Notes under the pieces: model-generated
Told to the model about the DNA's origin: nothing
The model's input: only the letters and a program-made list of their open reading frames with translations
Databases searched by the model: none
IMG/VR virus record: IMGVR_UViG_2778261175_000004
Source: a virus
Lineage: Duplodnaviria; Heunggongvirae; Uroviricota; Caudoviricetes
Length of the DNA: 28,329 nt
Reading direction: 5' to 3' (one strand)
Position numbers and translations under genes: made by a program
Shown here: positions 2,771 through 25,564 of the stretch, piece by piece
Layout: each line of letters begins with the position of its first letter
How positions within the stretch are numbered: position 1 is the stretch's first letter

Positions 2771-3674
2771 TCGCCCTCCTGAGAGACGGGATTTACGTGC
2801 ATCCAGTGCATCACGCATAACGGTGATCGCATCGGTGCTGTTGACAAGTTCATCAGCCAGTCCGGCATCAATGGCCTCCTGACCGCTGTACACTGCAGCC
2901 TCGGTATCCAGCACAGCCTGCACGGACAGGCCGGTATATGCCGACACCTTCTGCGCAAACATCCGGCGGGTTGCATCCATCCGGGACTGCAGTGTCTCCC
3001 GGACGTCATCCGGAAGATGGCTGTAGGGGTTGCCATCCACCTTATGGCTGCCGCTGTAAATCAGCGTGATTTCCACGCCCTGTTTCTCCAGCGCAGCACC
3101 GTAATTACTGTGAGCCATCATGACGCCGATGGAGCCTGTCCGGGCGGTCTGCGTGACCAGACGCCGGGAGGCGGCGCTGGCAAGCAGCTGACCTGCACTG
3201 CAGTTTATGTCGTTGGCCAGCGCCCATACCGGTTTTATGTCTCGCACACGGGCGATGATGTCAGCACAGTCAAATGCTCCCGCCACCATCCCGCCTGGCG
3301 TATCCATATCGAGCAGAATGCCGTCCACCATCGGATCGCTGGCAGCCTGTTGCAGACGGGCGATAATGCCGTTGTAACCGGTCATTCCCGAATACGGCTG
3401 CAGCGCCCGTGTCCGGCTGACCAGCGTACCGGACACCGGCAGCACGGCGATGCCGTTCATGACCTGATAACTGCGGGCCTGTCGTGGTCCGTCATCATCA
3501 CCGGATAACGCCAGCGCCGCGGGTGCCTCTCCGGCAGTCAGGCTGTCGCCGGACACCGCATCCGTCAGGCGACTGATCCCAAGCTGGCCTGCAAGCGCAC
3601 AAAAGAAAACCCGCGCATAGGCGGGTTCAAGCATCAGCGGCTCATTAAAAGCCATGCTGGCAATATGCGGGAGA

Positions 3675-3694
<20 letters not shown>
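2375..3694 (-). CDS. C: Prohead protease / head assembly protein C, GTG start
   Basis: 439 aa from GTG at 3694..3692 (VTAELRNLPHIASMAFNEPLMLEPAYARVFF...) matches recalled lambda gpC. A GGAGGAG ribosome-binding site lies immediately upstream, and the 1320-nt length and 20-nt overlap with B match the lambda layout. The longer 484-aa track ORF from 3829 would sit deep inside B. Confidence 0.88.
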
Positions 3695-7375
<3,681 letters not shown>

Positions 7376-13188: not shown

Positions 13189-13566
13189 TTATTTCGAACA
13201 ATCAGCATCCATCTCCAATCGGAGATCCAACACCATCAGCATACCCTCCACTACGCCCTCAGCTTTCTGGAGCATCCTGCCAACCCAACAATCAGATCGC
13301 CCATGCTTACGTGCAAGCGCCATAAAAGTCATGCCGCCGACATAATAGTCCACCAATAAATCATGCAAATCGCTGTTGTTCTTTTTCAGACGGGCCATGC
13401 ACCCGCAAATGATCATCGCGTCATCGTCACAACATTGCGGGCGAGATTTTACTTTTGAAGGAATTAATCCCTTAAAACCGGCGGCAATGGACGACCAGGT
13501 CACATCTTCATGATTATTAGCCGCCCACGCTCCCCAACGCTCAAGAACCATCTGAATATCACGCAT
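13189..13566 (-). CDS. Q: Late-gene antiterminator Q (QuuD-like)
   Basis: From the Met at 13566: [60 protein letters not shown]...; Cys-rich Zn motif; matches recalled DLP12 QuuD over most of its length. Confidence 0.8.
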
Positions 13567-13648
13567 CAACTTACTCCACAAAACTCAGACCAGAACGCCA
13601 ATTACAAGCAAAAATCAACAAAACAGTATTAGTTGATTGTTATCTCTG

Positions 13649-15155: not shown

Positions 15156-15271
15156 AAACGTCCCCGTTTAGCGCAGAAGTCACCGGAGTTGTTCAGGCTC
15201 CGGTGACATAATTATGCCGTGTTGATTTCCCAAAATCAAAATCGATAGAATTGCTCCTTCTTAAAACACTT

Positions 15272-16069
15272 TTACTCTCTGGAAGCTTTTCTTATCTCTC
15301 TTGGTGTTATATTAAAACGATTATGAAATCTTTCAGTAAAACGAGAAGGACACTTATAACCATTTTCTCTGGCAATCTCGCTTATAGGTTTTACCGTCGT
15401 TTGTATAGCAGACAACGCATTATTTAACCTCACATCGTCCAGTATACTTTGGAAACTTACCCCCTCGCTTGCTAGACGGCGATGTAATGTAGAAACAGAA
15501 ATGTAGAGATATCGAGCAACCTTGTTTGCTGTCCATTTTGTGCCGGGTTCGGATAGCAGCAGGTTATAACAACGACTTATCAATGATTGTTTACTATATG
15601 ATAAAAGTAAATGATTAACATGATTCACTCCTAACGAAAGTAGAACGCCCATTGCTAAGTGCTCCTGAATTTTAGTTGAGAAGCCTCGGGAAACAGATGT
15701 TTTTAGTTGCTCCCAACAATATATTAACTCAGGATTCTGAGGTAAAAAGAAACTTGTTTTGTTACGTATTTGATCAGTTACCGTATAAAGTTTTTGGAAA
15801 CTCTCAATTAAATCAATGGGTAAGTAAAGCATTTCTGCAAGATAAAGCCCTGCTTCAGGATAATTCTCAATATAAAATTCATAACCACAAGGAAATAATA
15901 TTATTTGATTATTATCAACAGTTAAAGTATGCGTCTCCCAATTGATAACTTTCTTTCCCTGACGGATACGACACAAAGCTGGCATAAGAGGCTTAACCCT
16001 ATGAATCTCATGATGTTTATGCATCCGTATTTCTTCGATCTTTAAGTTAGTCTTACCTCTTGCCAGCAT
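15272..16069 (-). CDS. ybcM: AraC-family transcriptional regulator YbcM-like
   Basis: 265 aa; C-terminal AraC helix-turn-helix (...[42 protein letters not shown]...). Matches DLP12 YbcM in position and length. Confidence 0.8.
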
Positions 16070-16078
16070 ACTCTCACC

Positions 16079-16630
16079 CTACTTTATCTCATAAACTGGT
16101 GTTATCTCAGCGGTTGCGATTTTATTAGCATTAAGCATATAACCAACTAACGCTCCGCTGGAGTTAGAATCTACAGGAATCTTTTCAGTTTTTAGAGCCC
16201 ATACTTTAAACTGGTAATGATGTGGTTTATCTCCTTTAGGAGGACACGCGCCACCAAACCCAGCATAGCCAAAATCATTTCGGCCTTGAACAGCACCAGT
16301 CGGCAGTTTTGTTCCATCACGTCTCCCTGCATCAACGGGCAAATATGTTATTGTTGCTGGAATATTAACAACAGTCCAATGCCACCAACCACTGCCTGTA
16401 GGTGCATCTGGATCATATACAGTTACGGCAAAGCTTTTGGTACCTTCAGGAACACCAGACCAGGTTAATGAGGGCGATGTATTACCACCTTCACACCCAA
16501 ATCCAGAAAAGACATGAGACGTTGTAAGTTGCTCTCCTGTTTTTATTTCATTACTAGTGACCTGAAATGCTGCAGCCTGCGCAGAAAATGTTATGAATGC
16601 CAATACAGTTGAAACGATAAGTGTTTTCAT
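16079..16630 (-). CDS. ybcL: Periplasmic phosphatidylethanolamine-binding protein (PEBP / Raf kinase inhibitor-like) YbcL-like
   Basis: 183 aa with signal peptide MKTLIVSTVLAFITFSAQA; PEBP motifs (...YDPDAPTGSGWWHW...HHYQFKVWAL...). Confidence 0.85.
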   Translation of the reverse strand: MKTLIVSTVLAFITFSAQAAAFQVTSNEIKTGEQLTTSHVFSGFGCEGGNTSPSLTWSGVPEGTKSFAVTVYDPDAPTGSGWWHWTVVNIPATITYLPVDAGRRDGTKLPTGAVQGRNDFGYAGFGGACPPKGDKPHHYQFKVWALKTEKIPVDSNSSGALVGYMLNANKIATAEITPVYEIK

Positions 16631-16846
16631 AAAAACCTCTTTGTTATGACCTATCGTTATTTTATTTGATATTCCTTTATCTCATTATGCATAAAGGCGC
16701 AATTTTTATGCAAAAGCAATCACAATTGTACCCCCAACCCAATTATTTGCCACAATATACACAAAGCACATTGATACTATCTAAAAACTCTGCTTTATTA
16801 TTAGTAATACCTACGAAAGTCGGTGTTATTTTTTAACCTATCATTC

Positions 16847-16896
16847 AAAATACGTGACATACACCATTTTGCTCATAATAATTTGTCACGTATTTT
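16847..16896. repeat. Perfect 13-bp inverted repeat AAAATACGTGACA / TGTCACGTATTTT with a 24-bp spacer, in the ybcK-ybcL intergenic region
   Basis: Direct reading: 16847-16859 and 16884-16896 are exact reverse complements. Confidence 0.9.
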
Positions 16897-17094
16897 CAGT
16901 ATTTGAATCTGCGACCAAGAGTTCTCACCTGACAAATGATTAAGATTGTATAGCTCATTTACTACCCCAATACAGCCGTACAAAACTCGCTTGTGGGAGC
17001 AAACAAAGTAATTACCCATTAAGTTTCGTCAAAGATAATTAATTCTGTCTTGCACTTTATCACCATAGCATAACTTAAAATCCGAGATCATTAT

Positions 17095-18621
17095 TTAGAA
17101 ATAAATCTCACCATCAACCATATATTTGAGAGCACTTATCGCCTGCTGGGCGGATATTACTTTCATTAAAGGATAGTGTTTAAAAACAATGCCATTCATA
17201 AAATAAATATCACAGGTTTTATTATCCGTATTAATTATGATTTTTTCGAATGTTTTATAGGCAAGTGTACGGCATAACTCTCGTCCATTTTTACTGGTTA
17301 AGTCAATAGCATAAAAATCACTGAATGAATTTACACCTTTACTCTTCAAAGTTTTCAATGATACCGAAGCCCTTCGTAATTCCTTATCTAATAGTCTTAT
17401 TTTCTCTGCTATAGCGGTAACTTCAGGCGCGACAGACAATGCAACGATTAAATTATTAATTTTCATCTGAAGCTCAATAATTTTTAACTCTAAAGTTTCA
17501 TTAGCATCTTTCTTGTTTTCAACTGGTTGAATTTTGCTACAATTAAAAAGCAATTCATTAATGATATTATAATCAACCAAATCTCTTTTTATTGATGGCC
17601 TGTCACATCGATGTAATCTTCTCATCGGACAAACATAATAGCCATGCAAACTTCCAGATACCGCATGAACAATCATGGTATTACCACAAGCCTCACACTT
17701 CATAACTGTTCGAAGTAGATTTATTAGCATAGGATTCTTGCTACTATTGCTAATACCAAAAGGTGCCAACCGAATTTCCTGTACAGCGTAAAACAAATCA
17801 TCTGATATGACTCTGGGATAATAGCCAGCGATTTCACTTATCCCTTTCCCTCTTGCACGATATGAAGGTACGCATATACCTATCAGAGCTTTATTCGCTA
17901 ATAATTTTTCAATTACAGAAGGTCCCCATGCACTTTCTTTTCCTGAGAAATTCTTTACAGCATGATCATTTAAATACTTGGCTATTGCATTCAATGAGCG
18001 CCTTTCCATCCTGAGTTTAAAAATTAGCTCAATAGTTTTCACCCTGTCGGGGTCTGGAACAAAAGCCGTTCTTTTGTCATCTAAGGAGAGCCATCTCGGA
18101 CAAGACGCCGTCATAATCGTACCTGATTCCAGTGCATCCTGCCGTTTTTTCTTCCATGATAATTTAACCCGACTTGACTTTATCTCGCTTTCTTCATTTG
18201 CCCTTTGTGCTATAAGTATGGCTTTTATTAATGAATATGGCTCATTCAAAGAGTCAATATTATAGACTGTATTGTCGCAAAGAGTTATAACATCAATACC
18301 GTGATTCAAAATCAATTTCAGACGTTCAATCGCTTCACCGACTTTTTCTCTTGAAAGTCTGTCCAGACTTTCAACTAACAATGTAGTTCCTGGCAATATA
18401 TAACCATGCTCTATAGCATCTAAAAATTCCGAAAAAGCTCCTGATTGTGCATGCTTTCCTTTGAATGCACTTAATCCTAAATCTTCATATGTTATGGTAT
18501 CAAGATAATAATCACTATTTACCTTTAACCATTCAGCAATAAGTCTTCTCTGTCGGTTTAATGAGTCACCAGACATCTGACCTGGTGATGAAAATCGCAT
18601 ATATGCTATGGCTTTTTTCAT
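17095..18621 (-). CDS. ybcK: Large serine recombinase (resolvase/invertase-type N-terminal catalytic domain plus large C-terminal domain), YbcK-like
   Basis: 508 aa. N-terminus MKKAIAYMRFSSPGQMSGDSLNRQRR... has the serine-recombinase catalytic motif (Y-x-R-x-S-S). C-terminal Cys cluster (CEACGNTMIVH...YYVCPMRRLHRC) is typical of large serine recombinases. Confidence 0.85.
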   Translation of the reverse strand: MKKAIAYMRFSSPGQMSGDSLNRQRRLIAEWLKVNSDYYLDTITYEDLGLSAFKGKHAQSGAFSEFLDAIEHGYILPGTTLLVESLDRLSREKVGEAIERLKLILNHGIDVITLCDNTVYNIDSLNEPYSLIKAILIAQRANEESEIKSSRVKLSWKKKRQDALESGTIMTASCPRWLSLDDKRTAFVPDPDRVKTIELIFKLRMERRSLNAIAKYLNDHAVKNFSGKESAWGPSVIEKLLANKALIGICVPSYRARGKGISEIAGYYPRVISDDLFYAVQEIRLAPFGISNSSKNPMLINLLRTVMKCEACGNTMIVHAVSGSLHGYYVCPMRRLHRCDRPSIKRDLVDYNIINELLFNCSKIQPVENKKDANETLELKIIELQMKINNLIVALSVAPEVTAIAEKIRLLDKELRRASVSLKTLKSKGVNSFSDFYAIDLTSKNGRELCRTLAYKTFEKIIINTDNKTCDIYFMNGIVFKHYPLMKVISAQQAISALKYMVDGEIYF

Positions 18622-18800
18622 GGTGACACCTGCTAACGTATGCTTTTATAAACCTTAGTGGTGGGATATAATTTTTGTTTAATTTTTATTTAAAAAGACA
18701 ATTAAGGTCACATTATCTTGAATATACAACAATAATCGTATTGCAATTTTCTTACGCCATAATCTTGAAAGCACAAAAGAATACATAAAAAATAAAGACA

Positions 18801-18845
18801 TTAACAAAAAGCATAAAACGAGGCTCATATAAATATAAGAGCCTC
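18801..18845 (-). terminator. Putative terminator downstream of emrE
   Basis: Stem GAGGCTC / GAGCCTC (18820-18826 / 18839-18845) with a 12-nt AT loop, followed on the minus strand by GTTTTATGCTTTTTG. The long loop makes this only moderately convincing. Confidence 0.35.
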
Positions 18846-18875
18846 CATATTTTAGTCGTTTAGAAACAAATTATT

Positions 18876-19211
18876 TTAATGTGGTGTGCTTCGTGACAAT
18901 AAATTAATAACCAACACACCGGCACAAATCAACATCATGCCTATAATAGCTGGCAGGTCCAGCCGTTGGTCGAAAAGTCCCCATGACAGTAAGCTAATCA
19001 GGACAATACCGACTCCTGACCAGATAGCATAAGCAATCCCTGTAGGAATATAAGCCAGCGTCTGAGCTAATAACCAGAATGATGCACAATAACAAATAAT
19101 TGTACCAACAGATGGCCATAACCGTGTAAAACCTTCTGAAAACTTCATTAAGGTTGTACCAATGACCTCTGCAAGTATTGCACCACCAAGATAAATATAA
19201 GGGTTCATAGC
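18876..19211 (-). CDS. emrE: Small multidrug resistance efflux transporter EmrE
   Basis: From the internal Met: MNPYIYLGGAILAEVIGTTLMKFSEGFTRLWPSVGTIICYCASFWLLAQTLAYIPTGIAYAIWSGVGIVLISLLSWG..., 110 aa; matches recalled E. coli EmrE. Confidence 0.95.
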   Translation of the reverse strand, partial: AMNPYIYLGGAILAEVIGTTLMKFSEGFTRLWPSVGTIICYCASFWLLAQTLAYIPTGIAYAIWSGVGIVLISLLSWGLFDQRLDLPAIIGMMLICAGVLVINLLSRSTPH

Positions 19212-19275
19212 ATATTCTTTCCTGTTCAAACTGGAGAGAATTGTACTACAGTTTGAACTCAACTCACCTGTTTCA

Positions 19276-19578
19276 TCATTGTGTACCCATTGATGTTCTT
19301 TTATATACCCTCAATACCCGTTTCATCGCGGCACTCTGGCGACACTCCTTAAAAATCAGATTCGTGCTCACCTTTCCTTCCCGTTCTTCTCTGGTAGCGA
19401 ACCGGTAATACACCGTTCGCCAGACCTTACCATCAACGACCAGGATTCCTGCCCGCGCCATTTTAGCCGCAGCCTGATTTATGCTGGTTACGGTTGCGCC
19501 TGTTACCGCGGCAACGTCCTGTGCACAGAAGCTCTTATGCGTCCCCAGGTAATGAATAATTGCCTCTTTGCCCGTCAT
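19276..19578 (-). CDS. ren: Ren protein (Rex exclusion escape), lambda-like
   Basis: 100 aa, MTGKEAIIHYLGTHKSFCAQDVAAVTGATVTSINQAAAKMARAGILVVDGKVWRTVYYRFATREEREGK...; matches recalled lambda Ren. Confidence 0.85.
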   Translation of the reverse strand: MTGKEAIIHYLGTHKSFCAQDVAAVTGATVTSINQAAAKMARAGILVVDGKVWRTVYYRFATREEREGKVSTNLIFKECRQSAAMKRVLRVYKRTSMGTQ

Positions 19579-20276
19579 ACACTTGCTCCTTTCAGTCCGA
19601 ACTTAGCTTTAATTTCTGCGATCTTCGCCAGAGCCTGTGCACGATTTAGAGGTCTACCGCCCATAACAGGAAGTTGTTTTACTGGTTCAGGTATCGTCTC
19701 ACCACGGTTAATTCGCGCTGTCATACAGGTCAGTTCATCGGCAGCCTTGCGCCGTAATTCCGCGTCAGTCAGCGCATTGGCCCGCATGTTCTGGTACAAG
19801 TTGGTAACCAACCAGTAATGCGCGTTCGATTTCCACGGATAAGACTCTGCATCCGGATACAGGCCACGCTTCCGGCAATACTCGTAAACCATATCAACCA
19901 GCTCGCTGACGTTTGGCAGCCCGGCGTTAACAGATGCTTCTTCCCGGCACCAGGCGACAAACTGCCCGGGTGATGGCAGGAATGGTCGATTCTGCCGACG
20001 GGCTACGCGCATTCCAGCGTTAACCTGTTCCATTGTGGTGATCCCGTTTTCCCGGAAAGCCAGAACCCACTGGCGGCGGATTTCGTTCAGTTCATTCTGG
20101 TCACGGTTAGCCAGGCTCGCCGGGAAAGTTGCCAGTAACTGGCTGAACACACCGTTGATGATCTGCGCTACCTGCTGTACCTGTGGCTTTTCGTCGTACT
20201 GTTCCGGCATGTTGTTGGCGATCCGGCGCATCTGCTCACAGTCAAAGTTAACCATCTGTGCGGCGATGTTTTTCAT
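19575..20276 (-). CDS. P: Replication protein P (DnaB helicase loader)
   Basis: 233 aa, MKNIAAQMVNFDCEQMRRIANNMPEQYDEKPQVQQVAQIINGVFSQLLATF...KFGLKGASV; near-identical to recalled lambda gpP. Confidence 0.95.
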   Translation of the reverse strand: MKNIAAQMVNFDCEQMRRIANNMPEQYDEKPQVQQVAQIINGVFSQLLATFPASLANRDQNELNEIRRQWVLAFRENGITTMEQVNAGMRVARRQNRPFLPSPGQFVAWCREEASVNAGLPNVSELVDMVYEYCRKRGLYPDAESYPWKSNAHYWLVTNLYQNMRANALTDAELRRKAADELTCMTARINRGETIPEPVKQLPVMGGRPLNRAQALAKIAEIKAKFGLKGASV

Positions 20277-21202
20277 AGCTCCACCCCGTAAATCCAGTCA
20301 GTGTTCGTCAGGTCGAGTTTTGGTTTGCCGGCTGTCACGCCAGCCTGTTGCTTGTTTCGGTTGATTTCGAGCTGGGTCCACTTGTCGCGGAGTTTGGCCG
20401 GACTTAGCACGTTACCGGACCAGAAGTTGTCCTGGCATGCCCAGCGGAACAGCACGCACATGTCGCGGTGGTTACGTCCGTCACGTTCACGCATCAGGCG
20501 GATATCGTTAGCCCACCCTGCAAAATTCGGTTTTCTGGCTGATGGCGCGATGGTCTTCACCATGTCAAACATCCACTCTGCGGCGGTCAGGTCTTCTGCT
20601 GTCCCCCACTTGCTGCCGCTCTGAATTGCAGCATCCGGTTTCACCACAGGAAGATCGTTTTCTGGTTGGTCAGAGGATTCGCCAGAATTCTCGGACGAAA
20701 AAGGTTTTATATTGTCTTTTGTTAGTTTGTCTTTTGTGTTTACCTGATTCGGGTAAACGCCTTTACCTGATTTGGGTAAACTTTTTTTACCTGATTCAGG
20801 TAAATTTACCTCTTTCAGGTAAACTTTATTTTTCTTACCTGATTCGGGTAATGTTGACCATTCACTGACCACATTATTAATGCCGGTATTCCGCCCGCTC
20901 TGAATAAAAATCCCACGCTTTACCAGAACACTTTTTGCAGCAGAACACTTGTGCGGCAATATCCCGGTTAATTCGGAAAGTTGCTCGTTGCTAACCCAAT
21001 CCAGTTTTTTATTAAAGCCATATGTTTTGCGCATGACAGCCAGAAAGACCAGAAGCTGGTGCTGTGTTAATCCGGCCAGCATCACAGCTTCCAGCAACTC
21101 ATTTGCAATGCGCGTATAACCATCATCGAGATCTGCCACGCGCGGCTCCTTTTGTGCCGCATCCGGCACTGGAAAATTGAATATCTCAGCAGTGTTTGCC
21201 AT
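20273..21202 (-). CDS. O: Replication initiator O: divergent N-terminal iteron-binding domain, lambda-like C-terminal P-interaction domain
   Basis: From the Met at 21202 (GGGAGG ribosome-binding site): MANTAEIFNFPVPDAAQKEPRVADLDDGYTRIANELLEA...; the C-terminal 110 aa (...GWANDIRLMRERDGRNHRDMCVLFRWACQDNFWSGNVLSPAKLRDKWTQLEINRNK...DWIYGVEL) matches recalled lambda O. An upstream ATG at 21292 overlapping the ydaT-like stop could add 30 aa. Confidence 0.85.
   Translation of the reverse strand: MANTAEIFNFPVPDAAQKEPRVADLDDGYTRIANELLEAVMLAGLTQHQLLVFLAVMRKTYGFNKKLDWVSNEQLSELTGILPHKCSAAKSVLVKRGIFIQSGRNTGINNVVSEWSTLPESGKKNKVYLKEVNLPESGKKSLPKSGKGVYPNQVNTKDKLTKDNIKPFSSENSGESSDQPENDLPVVKPDAAIQSGSKWGTAEDLTAAEWMFDMVKTIAPSARKPNFAGWANDIRLMRERDGRNHRDMCVLFRWACQDNFWSGNVLSPAKLRDKWTQLEINRNKQQAGVTAGKPKLDLTNTDWIYGVEL
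20740..20853. repeat. ori: Replication origin iterons: five direct repeats of about 19 bp (TTACCTGATTCGGGTAAAC consensus) inside the O gene, next to an AT-rich segment (about 20690-20739)
   Basis: Repeats at 20740-20758, 20763-20781, 20787-20805, 20806-20824 and 20835-20853, each with internal dyad TTACC...GGTAA. Position and AT-rich neighbour parallel the lambda ori embedded in O. Confidence 0.8.
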
Positions 21203-21288
21203 AATTCCTCCCGCAATGAGTGTGTTACGATTTGCACCTGAAAGTCGGTTCTGTTCCCGCAGACCGACTTTCGCCATTTTTGAACCTG

Positions 21289-21828
21289 TCATATTGCCCC
21301 CAGCATGGTGGTGACCATCGCCATCAATGGACCAGCCAGATCCGGGTCCACTCGAAACATCGACACAATGCCTTCACTCATCTCCTTCAGTTTCTGGTGG
21401 CGTGGTGCGTTGAGAATGACCGCCTGCTTTGCCTCACTGAGTTCCTTTTCCATTTCAGCCAGCCGAGCCATGAAGCTATCCTGCTCAACCAGGTGGCCGC
21501 GATATTCCAGCGGTAGTACCGCCAGAATTGCCGGGGTCAGTTCACGCACGTTATTTCGGTATTTTTCAGAATCGAATTTGTTATCGAGGAAGCGGAACAG
21601 CTTCTGGCGTGCACGACTGACATCATCAGGAAAATCGATGGTGCCGCCGCCCTGTGCTCGATACTCATTCACAATGAGTGCGGCAACTACATCCTGATTA
21701 TCTTCAGCAGACCAAGCGCGGACGGCATCACGGATTTTTTCGTGGCCTGGCACCTGTTTTGTTTGAGAACGATTTATCACCGCAGTCGGGCTAAATCCGC
21801 TAGTCTGTTGGTATGTAAGTGGTTGCAT
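21289..21828 (-). CDS. YdaT-family protein at the cII position (CII functional-equivalent family of Rac / CP-933P type prophages)
   Basis: 179 aa; segments ...EYRAQGGG... and ...TPAILAVLPLEYRGHL... resemble my recollection of YdaT. Sits between the cro-like gene and O. AGGAG ribosome-binding site. Family assignment is from memory and moderately uncertain. Confidence 0.55.
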   Translation of the reverse strand: MQPLTYQQTSGFSPTAVINRSQTKQVPGHEKIRDAVRAWSAEDNQDVVAALIVNEYRAQGGGTIDFPDDVSRARQKLFRFLDNKFDSEKYRNNVRELTPAILAVLPLEYRGHLVEQDSFMARLAEMEKELSEAKQAVILNAPRHQKLKEMSEGIVSMFRVDPDLAGPLMAMVTTMLGAI

Positions 21829-21897
21829 AATTGACTCCTTTAGTTTGAATTGACTGTTAAGTTGATTGCTTATTGTTAAAGAGCGTGAAATGGAAAT

Positions 21898-22128
21898 TTA
21901 AGCTGCGTTCTTTTCGGTGTGTGGAAACAACTTCGGAAGATCCGGGCGAATCTGGTATGCCTTCACTACTCCACCAGTAGCCGTAACAATGCTGCCGACA
22001 TGTTCAGGGGATACCTTTGCTTTGTTGTGAAGCCACTTATAGACGGCCTGCTGTGAAACTTCGCAAGCAGCGCCCAGTTTCTTTTGTGAACCAACGATAT
22101 TGATCGCTGTTTTGATAGCTGGGTTCAT
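21898..22128 (-). CDS. cro: Cro-like helix-turn-helix repressor (YdaS / Cro family), first gene of the rightward early operon
   Basis: 76 aa, MNPAIKTAINIVGSQKKLGAACEVSQQAVYKWLHNKAKVSPEHV...; helix-turn-helix motif; divergent from cI across an operator-rich intergenic region; GGAGG ribosome-binding site. Confidence 0.7.
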   Translation of the reverse strand: MNPAIKTAINIVGSQKKLGAACEVSQQAVYKWLHNKAKVSPEHVGSIVTATGGVVKAYQIRPDLPKLFPHTEKNAA

Positions 22129-22232
22129 AACAACCTCCGTGGTTAATTTGAATCAAGATTAAAACCATGGTTGTTTTTAGTCAACAACCATTTTCGTTTG
22201 ATGGAATAAAACCTTGGTTGTACATTTGGACT
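22129..22232. promoter_or_regulatory. Right operator/promoter region (OR with PR and PRM): three operator-like sites spaced about 23 bp apart
   Basis: 17-mers AAAACCATGGTTGTTTT (22161-22177) and AAAACCTTGGTTGTACA (22208-22224) plus an intermediate CAACAACCATTTTCGTTTG-type site. Minus-strand TTGACT (-35) at 22184..22179 reads toward cro. Plus-strand TACATT sits just upstream of the cI ATG, consistent with a leaderless PRM transcript. Confidence 0.5.
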
Positions 22233-22922
22233 ATGAAAACAACACTCTCAGAAAGACTTAAAGAAGCCAGATTAGCGCGAGGCCTTACACAAAAGGCGCT
22301 TGGGGATTTGGTCGGGGTTAGCCAAGCTGCTATTCAGAAAATCGAAACAGGGAAAGCTAATCAAACAACTAAAATCGTGGAGATCGCGAACGCTTTGGGT
22401 GTGCGCGCAGAATGGTTATCTTCTGGCGTTGGAAATATGTCAGACAGTACAGTGCAACCAATACAATCAACTGTCAGCCATTCCAAATACTTCAAGATTG
22501 ACGTTCTTGATATAGAAGTCAGTGCTGGGCCGGGAGTCATCAACCGTGAGTTTGTAGAAGTTCTACGCTCGGTTGAGTACTCGTTTGACGATGCTCGTCA
22601 TATGTTCGATGGTAGGAAGGCGGAAAATATCCGCATCATTAACGTGCGTGGTGACAGCATGTCAGGAACGATCGAACCAGGTGATCTGCTGTTCGTTGAT
22701 ATCACAGTTAAATCTTTCGACGGTGATGGTATCTATGCGTTTCTGTACGACGACACAGCCCATGTAAAGCGCCTGCAAATGATGAAGGATAAGCTGCTGG
22801 TCATCTCTGATAACAAAAGCTACTCACCGTGGGACCCGATCGAGAAAGACGAGATGAACCGGGTGTTCATCTTCGGTAAGGTTATTGGGAGCATGCCGCA
22901 GACATATAGGAAGCATGGGTAG
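22233..22922 (+). CDS. cI: CI-type prophage repressor (N-terminal helix-turn-helix, C-terminal LexA/S24 self-cleaving peptidase domain)
   Basis: From the Met at 22233: MKTTLSERLKEARLARGLTQKALGDLVGVSQAAIQKIETGK... (helix-turn-helix), then ...RGDSMSGTIEPGDLLFVD...VKRL... (S24 Ser/Lys dyad context), 229 aa. The track ORF begins 22 codons upstream inside the operators. Confidence 0.85.
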   Translation: MKTTLSERLKEARLARGLTQKALGDLVGVSQAAIQKIETGKANQTTKIVEIANALGVRAEWLSSGVGNMSDSTVQPIQSTVSHSKYFKIDVLDIEVSAGPGVINREFVEVLRSVEYSFDDARHMFDGRKAENIRIINVRGDSMSGTIEPGDLLFVDITVKSFDGDGIYAFLYDDTAHVKRLQMMKDKLLVISDNKSYSPWDPIEKDEMNRVFIFGKVIGSMPQTYRKHG

Positions 22923-23043
22923 TACCAATTAAAAATTATCAACTGGGCATTGTGCTCATTCAGTAAAGAACTAATTCCTATCTTTGCTCTAGGTAGTAAT
23001 ATTAAGCCACCGCAATAATATCTTTACCTAACGGCGTAAGAAT

Positions 23044-23070
23044 CCCGGTCACCGTGCCGGGTTTTCTTTT
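23044..23070 (+). terminator. Rho-independent terminator downstream of cI
   Basis: CCCGG-TCACCGTG-CCGGG followed by TTTTCTTTT (23044-23070). Confidence 0.55.
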
Positions 23071-23195
23071 GCCCTCCCCTCATCACACACACCGTTAAAA
23101 AAACCACCATAACCTCGCTTCAGTTATCGCTATGCGATTCAAGTCACAAAATAAATCCATCCTAAATACAACCAGTTATATCTAAAACAACCAAT

Positions 23196-23241
23196 AAAAC
23201 AACTTTTGTTGTTGACGGTAAAACAACTATAGTTTTAAATA
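23196..23241 (+). promoter_or_regulatory. Left operator/promoter region (OL with PL): two 17-bp operator-like dyads overlapping a -35/-10 pair
   Basis: AAAACAACTTTTGTTGT (23196-23212) and AAAACAACTATAGTTTT (23220-23236) share the AAAAC...GTTTT ends with the OR sites. TTGACG at 23212-23217 and TTAAAT at 23235-23240 are separated by 17 bp and point toward gam/bet/exo. Confidence 0.45.
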
Positions 23242-23433
23242 AGTTCATCGCAACAACACAACGATACGGCAACCACCTGATTCACCGTTGCGATGACCGC
23301 TTAGATCCGCAGTTTGAATTTCAGCAGGCTTCGGGGAGTGCGAGGGGTGAAACGGACGCGTGAACGTCGGTGTGACCAGCTGAAATCAACTCAACATTTC
23401 ATACCTTAGTCGCTTCAACGAGGCGACTTAGTT

Positions 23434-23724
23434 ATGACAACCGGCGGCCATCCACCGCCTGAATACGCGCAGAAGTCTCTATATGTTCAGCAGCCCAGCT
23501 TACGGGCAGGAGTTTTTATGGTTCATCAACATTACGGAACGCAGACCGTTAATCGAGGTGCGGTCATGCCAGGAATGCTGGTCAAACACAAAGATGGTAC
23601 CTGGACTGCATCAGCTAATTTACGCGGACGGCTTTATCTGCATCGCGGCATCGAGCGCACTTATACCCGTGATTTGCTCGTGGAAGTTTTTCTCGACGGA
23701 CGCGGTAACGGCCTGAATCGCTAA
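23434..23724 (+). CDS. Hypothetical early protein, first gene after PL (N/kil/cIII position); more likely 68 aa from the internal ATG at 23518
   Basis: Open frame. Internal Met ([29 protein letters not shown]...) is preceded by AGGAG at 5-nt spacing. The upstream ATG at 23434 has its only Shine-Dalgarno-like GAGG inside a hairpin. No recognisable family. Confidence 0.4.
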
Positions 23725-23799
23725 TCCCCTTTCCTGTTTTCCTAATCAGCCTGGCATTTCGCGGGCGATATTTTCACAGCCATTTTCAGGAGTTCAGCC

Positions 23800-24096
23800 A
23801 TGAACGCTTATTACATTCAGGATCGTCTTGAGGCTCAGAGCTGGGCGCGTCACTACCAGCAGATCGCCCGTGAAGAGAAAGAGGCAGAACTGGCAGACGA
23901 CATGGAAAAAGGCCTGCCCCAGCACCTGTTTGAATCGCTATGCATCGATCATTTGCAACGCCACGGGGCCAGCAAAAAAGCCATTACCCGTGCGTTTGAT
24001 GACGATGTTGGGTTTCAGGAGCGCATGGCAGAACACATCCGGTACATGGTTGAAACCATTGCTCACCACCAGGTTGATATTGATTCAGAGGTATAA
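23800..24096 (+). CDS. gam: Gam, RecBCD inhibitor (short 98-aa form)
   Basis: [60 protein letters not shown]...VDIDSEV; near-identical to recalled lambda Gam; AGGAG ribosome-binding site. Confidence 0.95.
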
Positions 24097-24101
24097 AACG
24101 G

Positions 24102-24887
24102 ATGAGTACAGCACTCGCAACGCTGGCAGGGAAGCTGGCTGAACGTGTCGGCATGGATTCTGTCGACCCACAGGAACTGATCACCACTCTTCGCCAGACG
24201 GCATTTAAAGGTGATGCCAGCGATGCGCAGTTCATCGCATTGCTGATCGTCGCCAACCAGTACGGCCTTAATCCGTGGACGAAAGAAATTTACGCCTTCC
24301 CTGATAAGCAGAACGGCATTGTTCCGGTGGTGGGCGTTGATGGCTGGTCCCGCATCATCAATGAAAACCAGCAGTTTGATGGCATGGACTTTGAGCAGGA
24401 CAATGAATCCTGTACATGCCGGATTTACCGCAAAGACCGTAATCATCCGATCTGCGTTACCGAATGGATGGATGAATGCCGCCGCGAACCATTCAAAACT
24501 CGCGAAGGCAGAGAAATCACGGGGCCGTGGCAGTCGCATCCCAAACGGATGTTACGGCATAAAGCCATGATTCAGTGTGCCCGTCTGGCCTTCGGATTTG
24601 CTGGTATCTATGACAAGGATGAAGCCGAGCGCATTGTCGAAAATACTGCATACACTGCAGAACGTCAGCCAGAACGCGACATCACTCCGGTTAACGATGA
24701 AACCATGCAGGAGATTAACACTCTGCTGATCGCCCTGGATAAAACATGGGATGACGACTTATTGCCGCTCTGTTCCCAGATATTTCGCCGCGACATTCGC
24801 GCATCGTCAGAACTGACACAGGCCGAAGCAGTGAAAGCTCTTGGATTCCTGAAACAGAAAGCCACTGAGCAGAAGGTGGCAGCATGA
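24102..24887 (+). CDS. bet: Bet (Red beta) single-strand annealing recombinase
   Basis: 261 aa, [66 protein letters not shown]...; near-identical to recalled lambda Bet. Confidence 0.97.
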
Positions 24888-25564
24888 CACCGGACATTAT
24901 CCTGCAGCGTACCGGGATCGACGTGAGAGCTGTCGAACAGGGGGATGATGCATGGCACAAATTACGGCTCGGCGTCATCACCGCTTCAGAAGTTCACAAC
25001 GTGATAGCAAAGCCCCGCTCAGGAAAGAAGTGGCCTGACATGAAAATGTCCTACTTCCACACCCTGCTAGCTGAGGTTTGCACCGGTGTGGCTCCGGAAG
25101 TTAACGCTAAAGCGCTGGCCTGGGGAAAACAGTACGAGAACGACGCCAGAACCCTGTTTGAGTTCACTTCCGGCGTAAATGTTATTGAATCCCCGATCAT
25201 CTATCGCGACGAAAGTATGCGCACCGCCTGCTCTCCCGATGGTTTATGCAGTGACGGCAATGGCCTTGAGCTGAAATGCCCGTTTACCTCCCGGGATTTC
25301 ATGAAATTCCGGCTCGGTGGTTTCGAGGCCATAAAGTCGGCTTACATGGCCCAGGTGCAGTACAGCATGTGGGTGACGCGAAAAGATGCCTGGTACTTTG
25401 CCAACTATGACCCGCGTATGAAGCGTGAAGGCCTGCATTATGTCGTGATTGAGCGGAATGAAAAGTATATAGCGAGTTTTGACGAGATGGTGCCGGAGTT
25501 CATCGAAAAAATGGACGAGGCACTGGCTGAAATTGGTTTTGTATTTGGGGAGCAATGGCGATGA
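24884..25564 (+). CDS. exo: Exo (Red alpha) 5'-3' exonuclease
   Basis: 226 aa, [65 protein letters not shown]...; near-identical to recalled lambda Exo. Confidence 0.97.

Follow-up and report, generated by a model that had tools for sequence, protein, structure and literature searches.

The window analysed here, the whole 28,329-nt stretch of a caudoviricete genome (IMG/VR record IMGVR_UViG_2778261175_000004), carries a small regulatory gene pair of the YdaS and YdaT families where a lambdoid phage has cro and cII. This raises three questions: what kind of early control region the pair belongs to, where its CII-type protein would act, and where the adjoining replication gene O begins. The features needed for the first question are as follows.

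23800–25564, plus strand: gam, bet and exo
22233–22922, plus strand: cI-like repressor with helix–turn–helix and S24 autopeptidase domains (Pfam HTH_3, Peptidase_S24)
22198–22226, plus strand: putative PRM (TTGATG, 17 nt, TACATT), found by sequence inspection
22156–22184, minus strand: putative PR (TTGACT, 17 nt, TAATCT), proposed from sequence
21898–22128, minus strand: cro-like gene, 76 aa, YdaS/P22-Cro family
21873–21885, minus strand: boxA consensus CGCTCTTTAACAA in the cro–cII spacer
21289–21828, minus strand: CII-type regulator, 179 aa, phi80 CII type, YdaT family

Identity and setting of the early control region

The region as a whole is, with good probability, the rightward early control (lysis–lysogeny) module of a very common Escherichia coli lambdoid prophage, and we are about equally confident that this prophage combines a DLP12-type nin region with lambda-type O/P and Red genes and lacks an N gene. 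The module was present in 2223 of 5426 complete E. coli genomes (41 %) and gave 392 matches in IMG/VR. It is 96–98 % identical in PhiR34_1, 4A7, 1W, 3W, Perceval and others, and more than ten sequenced phages carry the same DNA, annotated as Cro/cII/O/P. The original prediction had singled out the YdaS/YdaT pair joined to lambda-type O–P as a notable combination. The ORF map and family assignments confirm that the pair lies directly upstream of lambda-like O–P, but phi80 has the same order (cII, M3 RNA, an O-like and a P-like gene), and the frequency among E. coli genomes argues against anything unusual. A phi80-type (YdaT-family) CII beside lambda-type replication genes is an ordinary arrangement, already known, and its presence here changes little because mosaics of known lambdoid modules are routine. 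From the observed gene order, the putative PR would drive a single transcript comprising cro, the CII gene, O, P and ren. Rfam gave no match at gathering level across the whole window; with the limit relaxed to E 1, neither the immunity region nor the nin leader gave a credible match.

The 76-aa protein matched Pfam YdaS_toxin (E 4e-17; 62 bits against a cut-off of 30) and PHROG 35, a transcriptional repressor, with a sub-threshold match to P22_Cro (E 8e-5; 22.8 against 30.2). It is 67 % identical to Cro of Stx-phage PA28, 62 % to that of HK639 and 46–68 % to those of Salmonella P22-like phages. Both the profile match and the cro position by the operator region assign it to the YdaS/P22-Cro family. 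The gene for the 179-aa protein occupies the slot typical of the YdaT family, after the cro-like gene, opposite the repressor gene and before the replication genes. Its product matched Pfam YdaT_toxin (PF06254; E 8e-30, 103.5 bits, cut-off 21) over residues 67–154, confirming by profile search the proposed family, and PHROG 163, ‘CII-like transcriptional activator’, over residues 17–179 (E 3e-67). YdaT_toxin was the only family returned by the Pfam scan of this protein, with no match to the lambda CII family. It is 66 % identical to phi80 CII over 179 aa, 68 % to mEp237 CII and 73 % to that of CobraSix, and its recognition-helix segment SRARQKLFRFLDN is identical in the phi80 and CobraSix proteins. 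Similarity over the full length, the recognition helix and the C-terminal segment mark it as a phi80-type CII. The original description of the pair as of Rac/CP-933P rather than lambda type holds at the level of the YdaS and YdaT families, but not for the closest characterized relative, which is phi80 CII; Rac YdaT is only 35 % identical and CP-933P YdaT is distant (PDB 8bt1, E 1e-3).

YdaT proteins have a POU-like helix–turn–helix domain at the N terminus and, after it, a long helix through which they tetramerize as a four-helix bundle. The solved YdaT structures 8bt1 and 3c4r match residues 28–126 (E 1e-3 to 4e-3), and a single-sequence AlphaFold model of the 179-aa protein was all-helical at low confidence (pLDDT 48). 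YdaT of CP-933P and Rac binds TTGATT/ATGATT-N6-AATCAA, and the CP-933P protein activates a leftward promoter (PMC9986795, PMC11879457, PMC8630535). By analogy with these two proteins, the CII-type protein would be a tetrameric helix–turn–helix regulator that binds inverted repeats of the type TTGAT-N8-ATCAA. Family names offer another reading, in which the pair is a toxin–antitoxin system: Pfam calls the two families YdaS_toxin and YdaT_toxin, RefSeq uses ‘toxin YdaT domain-containing protein’, and overexpressed Rac YdaT is toxic (PMC11879457). We find this hardly credible, given that experiments on CP-933P and Rac identify Cro- and CII-like transcription factors, not a toxin–antitoxin pair (PMC8630535, PMC5917428, PMC11879457), that the genes stand where cro and cII are expected, with a cleavable repressor on one side and O/P on the other, and that the 179-aa protein is 66 % identical to the annotated phi80 CII.

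The cI-like gene likely starts at the ATG at 22233 rather than at 22167: the alignment with the PHROG repressor profile begins only at residue 23 of the long ORF, and RefSeq has a 229-aa product that starts at 22233. The putative PRM matches consensus at 8 of 12 positions, under the promoter-scan threshold, and transcription from it would be predicted to start on the A of the cI ATG, giving a leaderless mRNA as described for CP-933P paaR2 (PMC8630535) and also for lambda cI. The putative PR was likewise not called by the consensus promoter scan; it is surrounded by repeated operator-like AAAACC-W-GGTTGT sequences, which include an inverted repeat at 22167–22191.

On the transcribed strand of the cro–cII spacer, CGCTCTTTAACAA at 21885–21873 is the only exact copy in the window of the boxA consensus of rrn and lambdoid nut sites. 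The corresponding PA28 spacer aligns at boxA and then continues into a boxB-like hairpin, whereas no boxB hairpin follows boxA here. No N gene was found in the window, and there is no ORF of at least 40 aa between PL and kil. The nutR site is thus incomplete in this phage, with a boxA but neither the boxB hairpin nor the leftward-operon N gene that should accompany it, and the boxA is probably the remnant of a nutR site travelling with this cro module. A put-type antiterminator downstream of PL was also considered and rejected, as the leader aligned unconvincingly with the putL-like element of HK639.

Candidate sites of CII action

Three positions bear on where CII would act near its own gene.

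21829–21867, plus strand: two copies of AATTGACT and one TTGATT, the repeats of the original prediction
21801–21806, plus strand: predicted −10 hexamer TAGTCT, with a predicted start near 21813
21763–21780, plus strand: degenerate YdaT-type box TTGAGAACGATTTATCAC in CII codons 17–22, the predicted CII operator

The repeats in the cro–cII spacer had been proposed as binding sites or as part of a PRE-like promoter. The sequence check located TTGACT at 21831–21836 and 21850–21855, TTGATT at 21862–21867 and TTGTTA at 21873–21878, and showed that the direct repeat is really 8 nt long (AATTGACT at 21829–21836 and 21848–21855). An exact 8-nt direct repeat in a 69-nt AT-rich spacer arose in 6 % (mononucleotide shuffles) to 21 % (first-order Markov) of randomizations, and TTGAYT, a pattern picked after the data had been seen, occurs three times in the spacer against 0.11 expected from its window-wide density. 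The repeats are real and only weakly beyond chance.

Built into a full model, the original prediction would make these repeats the CII sites of a PRE in the spacer and join to them a 339-aa O, coupled to CII through an ATGA overlap. We consider this model very unlikely. In its favour, the repeats are there, the spacer is enriched in TTGAYT, the published half-site of YdaT is TTGATT, and at higher concentration CP-933P YdaT also protects flanking incomplete repeats (PMC9986795). However, two upstream modules meet the same CII allele (at least 98 % identity) at its ATG, and only one of them contains the repeats; at 45 of 80 loci the spacer is of the other type and has no TTGAYT. No YdaT-type inverted repeat is present in the spacer, its best match to TTGATT-N6-AATCAA in a search allowing up to three mismatches having three, and the 8-mer repeat is not significant (P 0.06–0.21). 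The consensus scan found no sigma-70-like promoter on the plus strand of the spacer, and by hand no acceptable −10 could be paired with TTGACT or TTGATT as a −35. TTGTTA is part of the boxA consensus on the transcribed strand, and the repeats themselves lie downstream of the predicted PRE-like start, overlapping the ribosome-binding site of the CII gene. The proposal that the repeats are CII sites or a PRE is thus probably wrong, a better-supported promoter being found inside the CII gene; the TTGAYT half-sites may serve weakly in auxiliary binding by CII.

Conservation across homologues suggests that the CII-dependent promoter most likely lies within the CII gene and not in the repeats. Within the first 100 nt of the gene, all 59 homologues have their best box match at +48, and TAnnnT follows it after exactly 20 nt in every one (50/50 when non-redundant), the only offset with this property; the homologues are mutually related, so that these counts are not independent events. 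A rival reading attributes the box and hexamer to constraints on the protein or its translation (peptide, codon or mRNA structure), with no promoter there and the real CII-dependent promoter, if any, elsewhere or phage-specific. Since the box codes for a conserved peptide, [MVL]INRxQ, part of its DNA conservation may indeed be protein-level. The evidence is all comparative, drawn from related sequences, and the box and −10 of the window are weak matches: the former agrees with TTGATT-N6-AATCAA at 8 of 12 positions, although at 7 of 8 in the TGAT/ATCA core, and TAGTCT is the weakest −10 variant seen. The published CP-933P promoter is also placed differently, the operator being described as ‘downstream from’ the proposed promoter, that is, on the other side from the geometry here (PMC9986795).

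Synonymous choices nevertheless follow what the DNA motifs need. Codon 17 is always NTG though the residue varies between M, V and L. The isoleucine codon of the box is the rare ATA in 41 of 50 sequences and ATT in the other nine, never ATC, which keeps TGAT[A/T]. Codon 9 always ends in T (AAT 25, AGT 16, GAT 4, GGT 3, ATT 1, ACT 1) across N, S, D, G, T and I, and at codons 9–10 the hexamer is conserved where the residues are not. The same geometry is also seen at other sites. TATGAT lies 20 nt beyond the footprinted Rac box and TACAAT 21 nt beyond that of CP-933P, and 11 other prophages have, upstream of xis, a box followed after 20 nt by TATACT; there the DNA is non-coding and the spacers are unrelated in sequence. 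When the whole phi80 and mEp237 genomes were searched, the box–20 nt–TAnnnT arrangement occurred once, at the 5′ end of CII. On these grounds we judge that coding constraints are an unlikely explanation of the pattern as a whole, and prefer the promoter within the CII gene.

Under this preferred reading, the operator for establishing repression would be the degenerate box within CII's own codons 17–22. Its centre lies about 41.5 bp upstream of the predicted start near 21813 on the plus strand, with a weak −10 (TAGTCT) and no −35. The conserved sequence thus has the layout of a class II activator-dependent promoter, at which CII would bind and activate. The resulting PRE-like transcript would cross the spacer, antisense to cro, and run into cI, as from lambda PRE. 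As the box, the −10 and the start are all inside the gene, CII would carry its own promoter through exchanges of the immunity module, and the recombination junction, which falls exactly at the CII ATG, fits a gene and promoter that move together. In the phi80/YdaT group, the CII-dependent establishment promoter is thereby given a precise, testable position, with a geometry that fits the footprinted Rac and CP-933P sites.

Further searches for such sites gave little. A second box–20 nt–TAGTCT match in the window, at 16010–16053, lies within an AraC-like gene, has a poor right half-site and was set aside as chance. No YdaT box was found upstream of the prophage's int in an identical genome, only arm-type repeats TTGTGTACCAA, and comparison of the phi80 int promoter region with the phi80 cro–cII region gave no meaningful shared motif. 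The literature search, which did not extend to the original 1980s phi80 papers, found no report of a phi80 PRE or CII site, nor any mapping of promoter position for Rac or CP-933P.

One further candidate site lies far downstream.

15180–15239, minus strand: nin-region promoter (TTGATT, 17 nt, CATAAT)

A search for TTGATT-N6-AATCAA returned 15222–15239 as the sole perfect site, and this box (TTGATTttgggaAATCAA, 15239–15222) occupies the −35 and spacer of the nin promoter, which is annotated in the phage 82 record X92588.1. The nin box element is confined to phages that also carry a phi80/YdaT-type CII. The predicted 5′ end of the nin transcript folds into a hairpin (15206–15180) with a conserved loop, CCTGAACAA. 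The box, which covers the −35 and spacer of a promoter upstream of Q, is at a repressor-type position, so that CII might, hypothetically, act as a brake on the late genes as well.

It is conceivable, though we would put it at somewhat less than an even chance, that phi80/YdaT-type CII governs a small regulon through a single 18-bp palindrome, TTGAT-N8-ATCAA, that works in two geometries, activating and repressing, together with an RNA element in the nin leader. In the activating geometry, a box at −41.5 with TAnnnT may form the PRE-like promoter in the first 22 CII codons and, in some lineages, the xis promoter. In the repressing geometry, a box over the −35 and spacer may repress the nin promoter driving ninB...rusA...Q. 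The conserved 5′ hairpin of the nin transcript (loop CCUGAACAA, with a covarying stem) would be a further, uncharacterized RNA element. The perfect box at the nin promoter suggests how N-less phages might tie their late genes to the lysogeny decision; if so, the nin box would in such phages take over the part that paQ antisense control of the late genes plays in lambda.

The cII–O junction and the start of O

Downstream of CII, the window carries the following features.

21212–21283, plus strand: predicted oop/M3-like RNA of about 70 nt, with a terminator hairpin at 21240–21272 followed by CGCCATTTTT
21177–21205, plus strand: Po-like promoter (TTGAAT, 17 nt, CATAAT, TG-extended), found by promoter scan
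20273–21202, minus strand: replication initiator O, 309 aa, with its ATG at 21202 preceded by GGGAGGA
20739–20851, no strand assigned: ori, five iterons of the type TTACCTGATTCGGGTAA, inside O and beside an AT-rich stretch
19575–20276, minus strand: helicase loader P

O matched Pfam Phage_rep_O (E 1e-33) and is 67 % identical to lambda O; P matched Phage_lambda_P (E 8e-62). The iterons have the same position within O as those of lambda ori, and the O N-terminal domain, the iterons in O and the P loader together identify lambda-type replication genes.

The original prediction noted that the stop of the 179-aa gene (TGA, 21291–21289) overlaps an ATG (21292–21290) in frame with O, which would add 30 codons and hint at translational coupling. 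The overlap is present as described; 78 of 80 close relatives keep the long frame open, and public records (RefSeq and GenBank) annotate this form. The extension is nevertheless not supported. The alignments with lambda O and with the PHROG O profile both begin only at residue 31 of the long ORF. Among relatives, the ATG is missing from HK639 and CobraSix, a stop interrupts the extension in phi80 and HK225, and mEp237 has it out of frame; in one close relative, too, it is absent, interrupted or out of frame. Within the clade its changes have no third-position bias, in contrast to a coding-type substitution pattern. The coupling proposed between CII and O is also disfavoured, as the ATG at 21202 has its own strong ribosome-binding site. 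Comparison with relatives thus supports a model in which O would start at 21202, uncoupled from the CII stop, and translated O probably does not include the 30 codons that begin at 21292. RefSeq and GenBank thus appear to give the O gene of this very common prophage 30 codons too many.

What the 86-nt cII–O gap does appear to hold is an antisense RNA. The gap is homologous to the phi80 spacer annotated as ‘M3 RNA, homolog of lambda oop’, and also to the ‘M3-like RNA’ of HK639. The −10 of the Po-like promoter overlaps the true O start codon on the opposite strand, and equivalent promoters are TTGATT-17-CATACT in phi80 and TTGAGT-17-CATAAT in lambda. Compensatory changes were found in 10 of 22 predicted consensus pairs, eight of them within the 15-pair terminator hairpin, and the fold z-score of the antisense hairpin region was −3.0; no Rfam family matched the predicted RNA. 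The terminator is weaker than that of phi80, with its T-run apart from the stem, and many relatives have TTTCC or TTTCT. At the sequence level, the locus thus has the marks of oop/M3: a short antisense RNA between cII and O, a promoter over the O start and a terminator hairpin. It would not reach the 3′ coding end of cII: the predicted end of the RNA is near 21283, and the cII stop codon is at 21289–21291; phi80 M3 likewise ends 16 nt from cII. Homology and structure point to an RNA of about 70 nt that, if expressed, would pair with the cII–O junction of the PR transcript and could act there.

Comparison with known systems

Among the closest known systems, phi80 has an early-right order, gene 30 (cro), cII, M3 RNA, gene 15 (O-like) and gene 14 (P-like), that is the same as here. 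The two also share an 85–86 nt gap between cII and the initiator gene with an oop-like M3 RNA, the same pairing of box and −10-like hexamer within the beginning of cII, and a homologous nin-region promoter with a palindromic box. They differ in that phi80 has another cI/cro immunity module, with a GC hairpin and no TTGACT repeats in its cro–cII spacer, and has an N gene and nut sites, which the window lacks. Compared with phi80, the N-terminal/ori part of O and P are lambda-type in the window.

CP-933P has the same Pfam families in the same slots, between the repressor gene and the o gene. Its YdaT binds TTGATT-N6-AATCAA and activates a leftward promoter, and TACAAT follows the box after 21 nt. 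The CP-933P box is a perfect palindrome over the ydaT start, whereas the window has a degenerate box, placed 48 nt inside a longer gene. PaaR2 of CP-933P has no cleavage domain and is followed by a toxin–antitoxin pair, in contrast to the repressor of the window with its S24 domain. Rac of K-12 likewise has the same families (RacR/YdaS/YdaT); its box, ATGATT-N6-AATCAA, overlaps the ydaT start, with TATGAT exactly 20 nt further on the leftward strand. Neither the conserved C-terminal segment nor the N-terminal extension of 22 residues is present in Rac YdaT, and the Rac replication genes, ydaU and ydaV, are different.

With lambda, which has cro–nutR–tR1–cII–oop–O–P with PRE, PI and paQ, the region shares its logic and gene order. 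In both, the CII operator, predicted in the case of the window, lies inside the 5′ end of cII, and the antisense-RNA promoter overlaps the O start. The C-terminal half of O is nearly identical to that of lambda and P is 97 % identical, whereas lambda Cro and CII are unrelated in sequence to the pair in the window. Lambda CII reads direct TTGC repeats, whereas YdaT proteins read an inverted repeat (PMC9986795). Lambda oop overlaps the 3′ end of cII, whereas the antisense RNA here would end before the CII stop, and the window lacks the N gene, complete nutR and cIII of lambda. Finally, where lambda has an antisense promoter inside Q, the window has a possible direct CII box at the promoter upstream of Q.

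Gene layout and the start of O

The minus strand of the window corresponds to the lambda 'rightward' direction and carries, in order, a cro-like gene, a spacer, the CII gene, O, P, ren and the nin region. The plus strand carries the repressor, a kil-like gene and gam, bet and exo, and the integrase gene at the window's end lies on the minus strand, pointing inward.

Genes of the early region
23518-23724, plus strand: kil-like gene, after an ORF-free stretch of the PL region
From 22233, plus strand: repressor with S24 cleavage domain
22128..21898, minus strand: cro-like gene, 76 aa, YdaS/P22-Cro type
69 nt between the cro-like gene and the CII gene: spacer
21828..21289, minus strand: CII gene, 179 aa; Pfam YdaT_toxin, PHROG 'CII-like transcriptional activator'
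13581..13189, minus strand: Q, closing a DLP12-type nin region

Re-reading of the sequence and a repeat search found every sequence observation of the original prediction correct at its coordinates. By profile and sequence similarity, the family assignments of the 76 aa and 179 aa proteins are clear, the latter scoring 103 bits for Pfam YdaT_toxin where the cut-off is 21. O shares 67 % identity with lambda O, from which it hardly differs in the C-terminal half, and contains five iterons; P shares 97 % identity with its lambda counterpart. A putative PRM (TTGATG-17-TACATT) was seen at 22198-22235 with its predicted start at 22233, the first base (A) of the cI start codon ATG, which would give a leaderless repressor mRNA like those of lambda and CP-933P; the long cI ORF, which opens at 22167, probably goes unused. 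Neither an N-like gene nor cIII was found between PL and the Red genes (22922-23800). The PL region displayed repeated AAAACAAC operator-like sequences near 23185-23240, followed by approximately 270 nt without an ORF, and its leader bore no resemblance to the putL-like RNA of HK639.

The stop of the CII gene does overlap an in-frame ATG (ATGA), and a long O of 339 aa is annotated in RefSeq (NZ_CP026723.1) and in the GenBank record of PhiR34_1 (PV340559.1). The claim that O is thereby lengthened by 30 aa was not upheld. Alignment with lambda O begins at residue 31 of the long ORF, as do the PHROG O profiles, and the ATG at 21202 has GGGAGGA just upstream. In phi80 and HK225 the upstream frame matching the extension runs for 25 codons before a stop, that of mEp237 is not in register with O, HK639 and CobraSix have no ATG there, and one close relative (L047) has a 1 nt deletion within the frame. 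Among 78 close relatives, variable sites by codon position numbered 17/6/44 in the CII gene and 3/6/5 in the 30 extension codons, the latter with 9 non-synonymous versus 5 synonymous alternatives. Sequence comparison favours an O of 309 aa from the internal ATG 21202 (locus 20273-21292), not 339 aa. Nor is there support for coupling the translation of O to that of the CII gene, because O carries its own initiation signals and the spacer before it is predicted to serve a function of its own.

This 86 nt gap between the CII gene and O is homologous to the phi80 spacer, whose RNA is annotated 'M3 RNA, homolog of lambda oop', and also to the 'M3-like RNA' of HK639.

Features of the CII gene-O gap
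21177-21205, plus strand: Po-like promoter site from the promoter scan, TTGAAT-17-CATAAT, its -10 overlapping the O start codon
21240-21272, plus strand: terminator hairpin, followed by a T-run

The same overlap of promoter and O start can be read in the phi80 and lambda sequences. An alignment of seven sequences (the window, three within-clade variants, mEp237, phi80 and HK639) displayed compensatory changes in 10/22 pairs of the predicted consensus structure, eight of them in the 15-pair terminator hairpin, and the fold z-score was -3.0. Promoter site, hairpin and fold score are compatible with a predicted plus-strand antisense RNA, and this oop/M3-like RNA gene has been left unannotated because public records give O as 339 aa.

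The cro-CII spacer and a predicted promoter inside the CII gene

The TTGACT repeats of the spacer had been proposed as binding sites or part of a PRE-like promoter. In the 80 closest IMG/VR loci, one CII allele (at least 98 % identity) occurs behind two unrelated upstream modules, the junction falling precisely on the ATG of the gene; these modules are the window's type with TTGACT repeats (35/80) and an alternative with a GC-rich hairpin and zero TTGAYT (45/80). Were the repeats the CII operator, the latter 45 loci would be without one. The exact 8-mer repeat was not significant by shuffling (P 0.06-0.21); the density of TTGAYT in the spacer is high, but the pattern was picked post hoc. The promoter scan returned no plus-strand promoter in the spacer, and both proposed roles are probably wrong.

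Features of the spacer and the CII gene
21873-21885, minus strand: orphan boxA consensus CGCTCTTTAACAA, just after cro, without a boxB hairpin
21763-21780, plus strand: predicted CII box, 7/8 core positions
21801-21806, plus strand: predicted -10 (TAGTCT)
Near 21813, plus strand: predicted start

The TTGTTA element, also proposed for binding or promoter function, is instead the complement of part of CGCTCTTTAACAA, which matches the boxA consensus of rrn and lambdoid nut sites. In PA28, which encodes a Cro of 67 % identity and an N-like gene, this boxA stands at the equivalent position and a boxB-like hairpin comes next. In the window no boxB hairpin follows the boxA and no N gene is present, and so the boxA looks like a remnant carried with the cro module.

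A CII-dependent promoter is more likely to lie inside the CII gene. Phage homologues were compared together with 53 further loci, drawn from the genomes of various enterobacterial species, giving 59 sequences, 50 non-redundant, that are kin to one another. In 59/59 the best match to the published YdaT box (an inverted repeat of the type TTGATT-N6-AATCAA) within the first 100 nt was at +48 to +65 (codons 17-22), with the peptide [MVL]-I-N-R-x-Q over the DNA pattern xTGATAAAyCGnnnTCAr; one genome carries the perfect box TTGATAAATCGCTATCAA. The Ile codon was ATA in 41/50 non-redundant sequences, ATT in 9/50 and ATC in 0/50, and codon 17 was always NTG despite encoding M, L or V. Such codon usage suggests that the DNA itself is under constraint here. 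Exactly 20 nt beyond the box, on the leftward strand, TAnnnT was present in 59/59 sequences (TATTGT, TATTTT or TACTCT; TAGTCT in the window), and in the non-redundant set in 50/50 at this offset versus 28/50 at the next best. The amino acids under it vary (NT, NS, ST, SN, GN, DT, TS and others), and the third base of codon 9 is T throughout (AAT 25 with AAC never, AGT 16, GAT 4, GGT 3, ATT 1, ACT 1). With the box centred 41.5 bp upstream of the predicted start, a -10 and no -35, this arrangement corresponds to the classical design of class II activator-dependent promoters.

Three independent comparisons displayed matching geometry. Rac (K-12 sequence) has its footprinted box, 20 nt and then TATGAT; the CP-933P operator oligonucleotide O_MR has a box, 21 nt and then TACAAT; and 11 genome loci have a TTGATA-N6-TATCA[A/T] box 6.4-6.9 kb left of the CII gene, followed by exactly 20 nt of unrelated sequence, TATACT and an excisionase gene (10/11 core-perfect, one with a CTGATA left half). 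The CP-933P authors, however, place the main operator downstream of their proposed promoter, at odds with this reading. Searches of the complete phi80 and mEp237 genomes each gave a single instance of the box-20 nt-TAnnnT geometry, at the CII gene. The window's own box and -10 are weak versions among the homologues, and a transcript from approximately 21813 would run antisense through cro to cI. A second box-20 nt-TAGTCT match at 16010-16053 (plus strand), inside the AraC-like gene (5' part, opposite strand), is probably due to chance, as its right half-site is poor (CATCC).

In loci L106, L114-L116, L118, L128, L130, L132, L135 and L152, the -10 hexamer upstream of the excisionase gene sits in the loop of an inverted repeat; the arms vary from locus to locus with complementarity kept. 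Just past the window's end, upstream of int (3606-3760 of locus L153), direct repeats TTGTGTACCAA precede the integrase gene and resemble arm-type repeats near the phi80 attP; no YdaT box was present in this stretch.

A YdaT-type box in the nin region

The sole perfect TTGATT-N6-AATCAA in the window, TTGATTttgggaAATCAA (15222-15239; approximately 0.06 expected by chance), lies within a promoter element.

Feature of the nin region
15180-15239, minus strand: nin promoter TTGATT-17-CATAAT with box and 5' hairpin, the box overlapping the -35 and spacer

The promoter reads toward ninB-like, ninE, rusA and Q, and the depositors of phage 82 record X92588.1 had already marked it. Across seven diverged phages the half-sites and -10 were invariant, with variable inter-half-site spacer and upstream flank, a pattern that fits a predicted protein-binding palindrome. 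The predicted transcript opens with a hairpin of covarying stem and conserved loop (CCUGAACAA / CCTGAACAA), which matched no Rfam family. Of the records in the phage collection, only those with a phi80/YdaT-type CII contained the element, a short phage 82 fragment excepted, and in 33/53 genome loci it lay at most 7.5 kb from the CII gene; the obvious alternative explanation for this co-occurrence is shared ancestry of the whole early-right block. As the box sits at a repressor-type position, we hypothesize that CII might hold back Q expression through it.

Distribution and comparison with known systems

The 3.5 kb around the CII region displayed 96-98 % identity to sequenced phages annotated with cI, Cro, cII, O and P (PhiR34_1, PhiR47_2, IdasGreatGrand, 4A7, 1W, 3W and Perceval), and 964 bases of it were present in 2223/5426 complete E. 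coli genomes. The 179 aa protein has 392 relatives in IMG/VR and is 66 % identical to phi80 CII, 68 % to mEp237 CII, 73 % to the CobraSix homologue and 35 % to Rac YdaT, with distant similarity to CP-933P YdaT (PDB 8bt1; E 1e-3). Lambdoid immunity modules of this kind are known and very common. The points of interest are the revised start of O, the homologue of oop/M3 and a model, open to testing, of the site and action of phi80/YdaT-type CII. The original prediction was partly right on family and context; the O extension, coupling and role of the repeats were wrong or unsupported.

A YdaT-type CII beside O and P is a known arrangement, since phi80 shares the order cro-like gene, cII, M3 RNA, O-like gene and P-like gene, an o gene also lies downstream of ydaT in CP-933P (PMC8630535), and YdaS and YdaT are already treated in the literature as Cro and CII analogues. 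That published view contradicts a toxin-antitoxin reading of YdaS/YdaT. Between ren and the nin genes, a cargo block (15272-19262) encodes an SMR (EmrE-like) transporter, a YbcK-like recombinase, YbcL and the AraC-family YbcM; because this arrangement matches that of the K-12 prophage DLP12, the window appears to be a DLP12 relative that is still intact.
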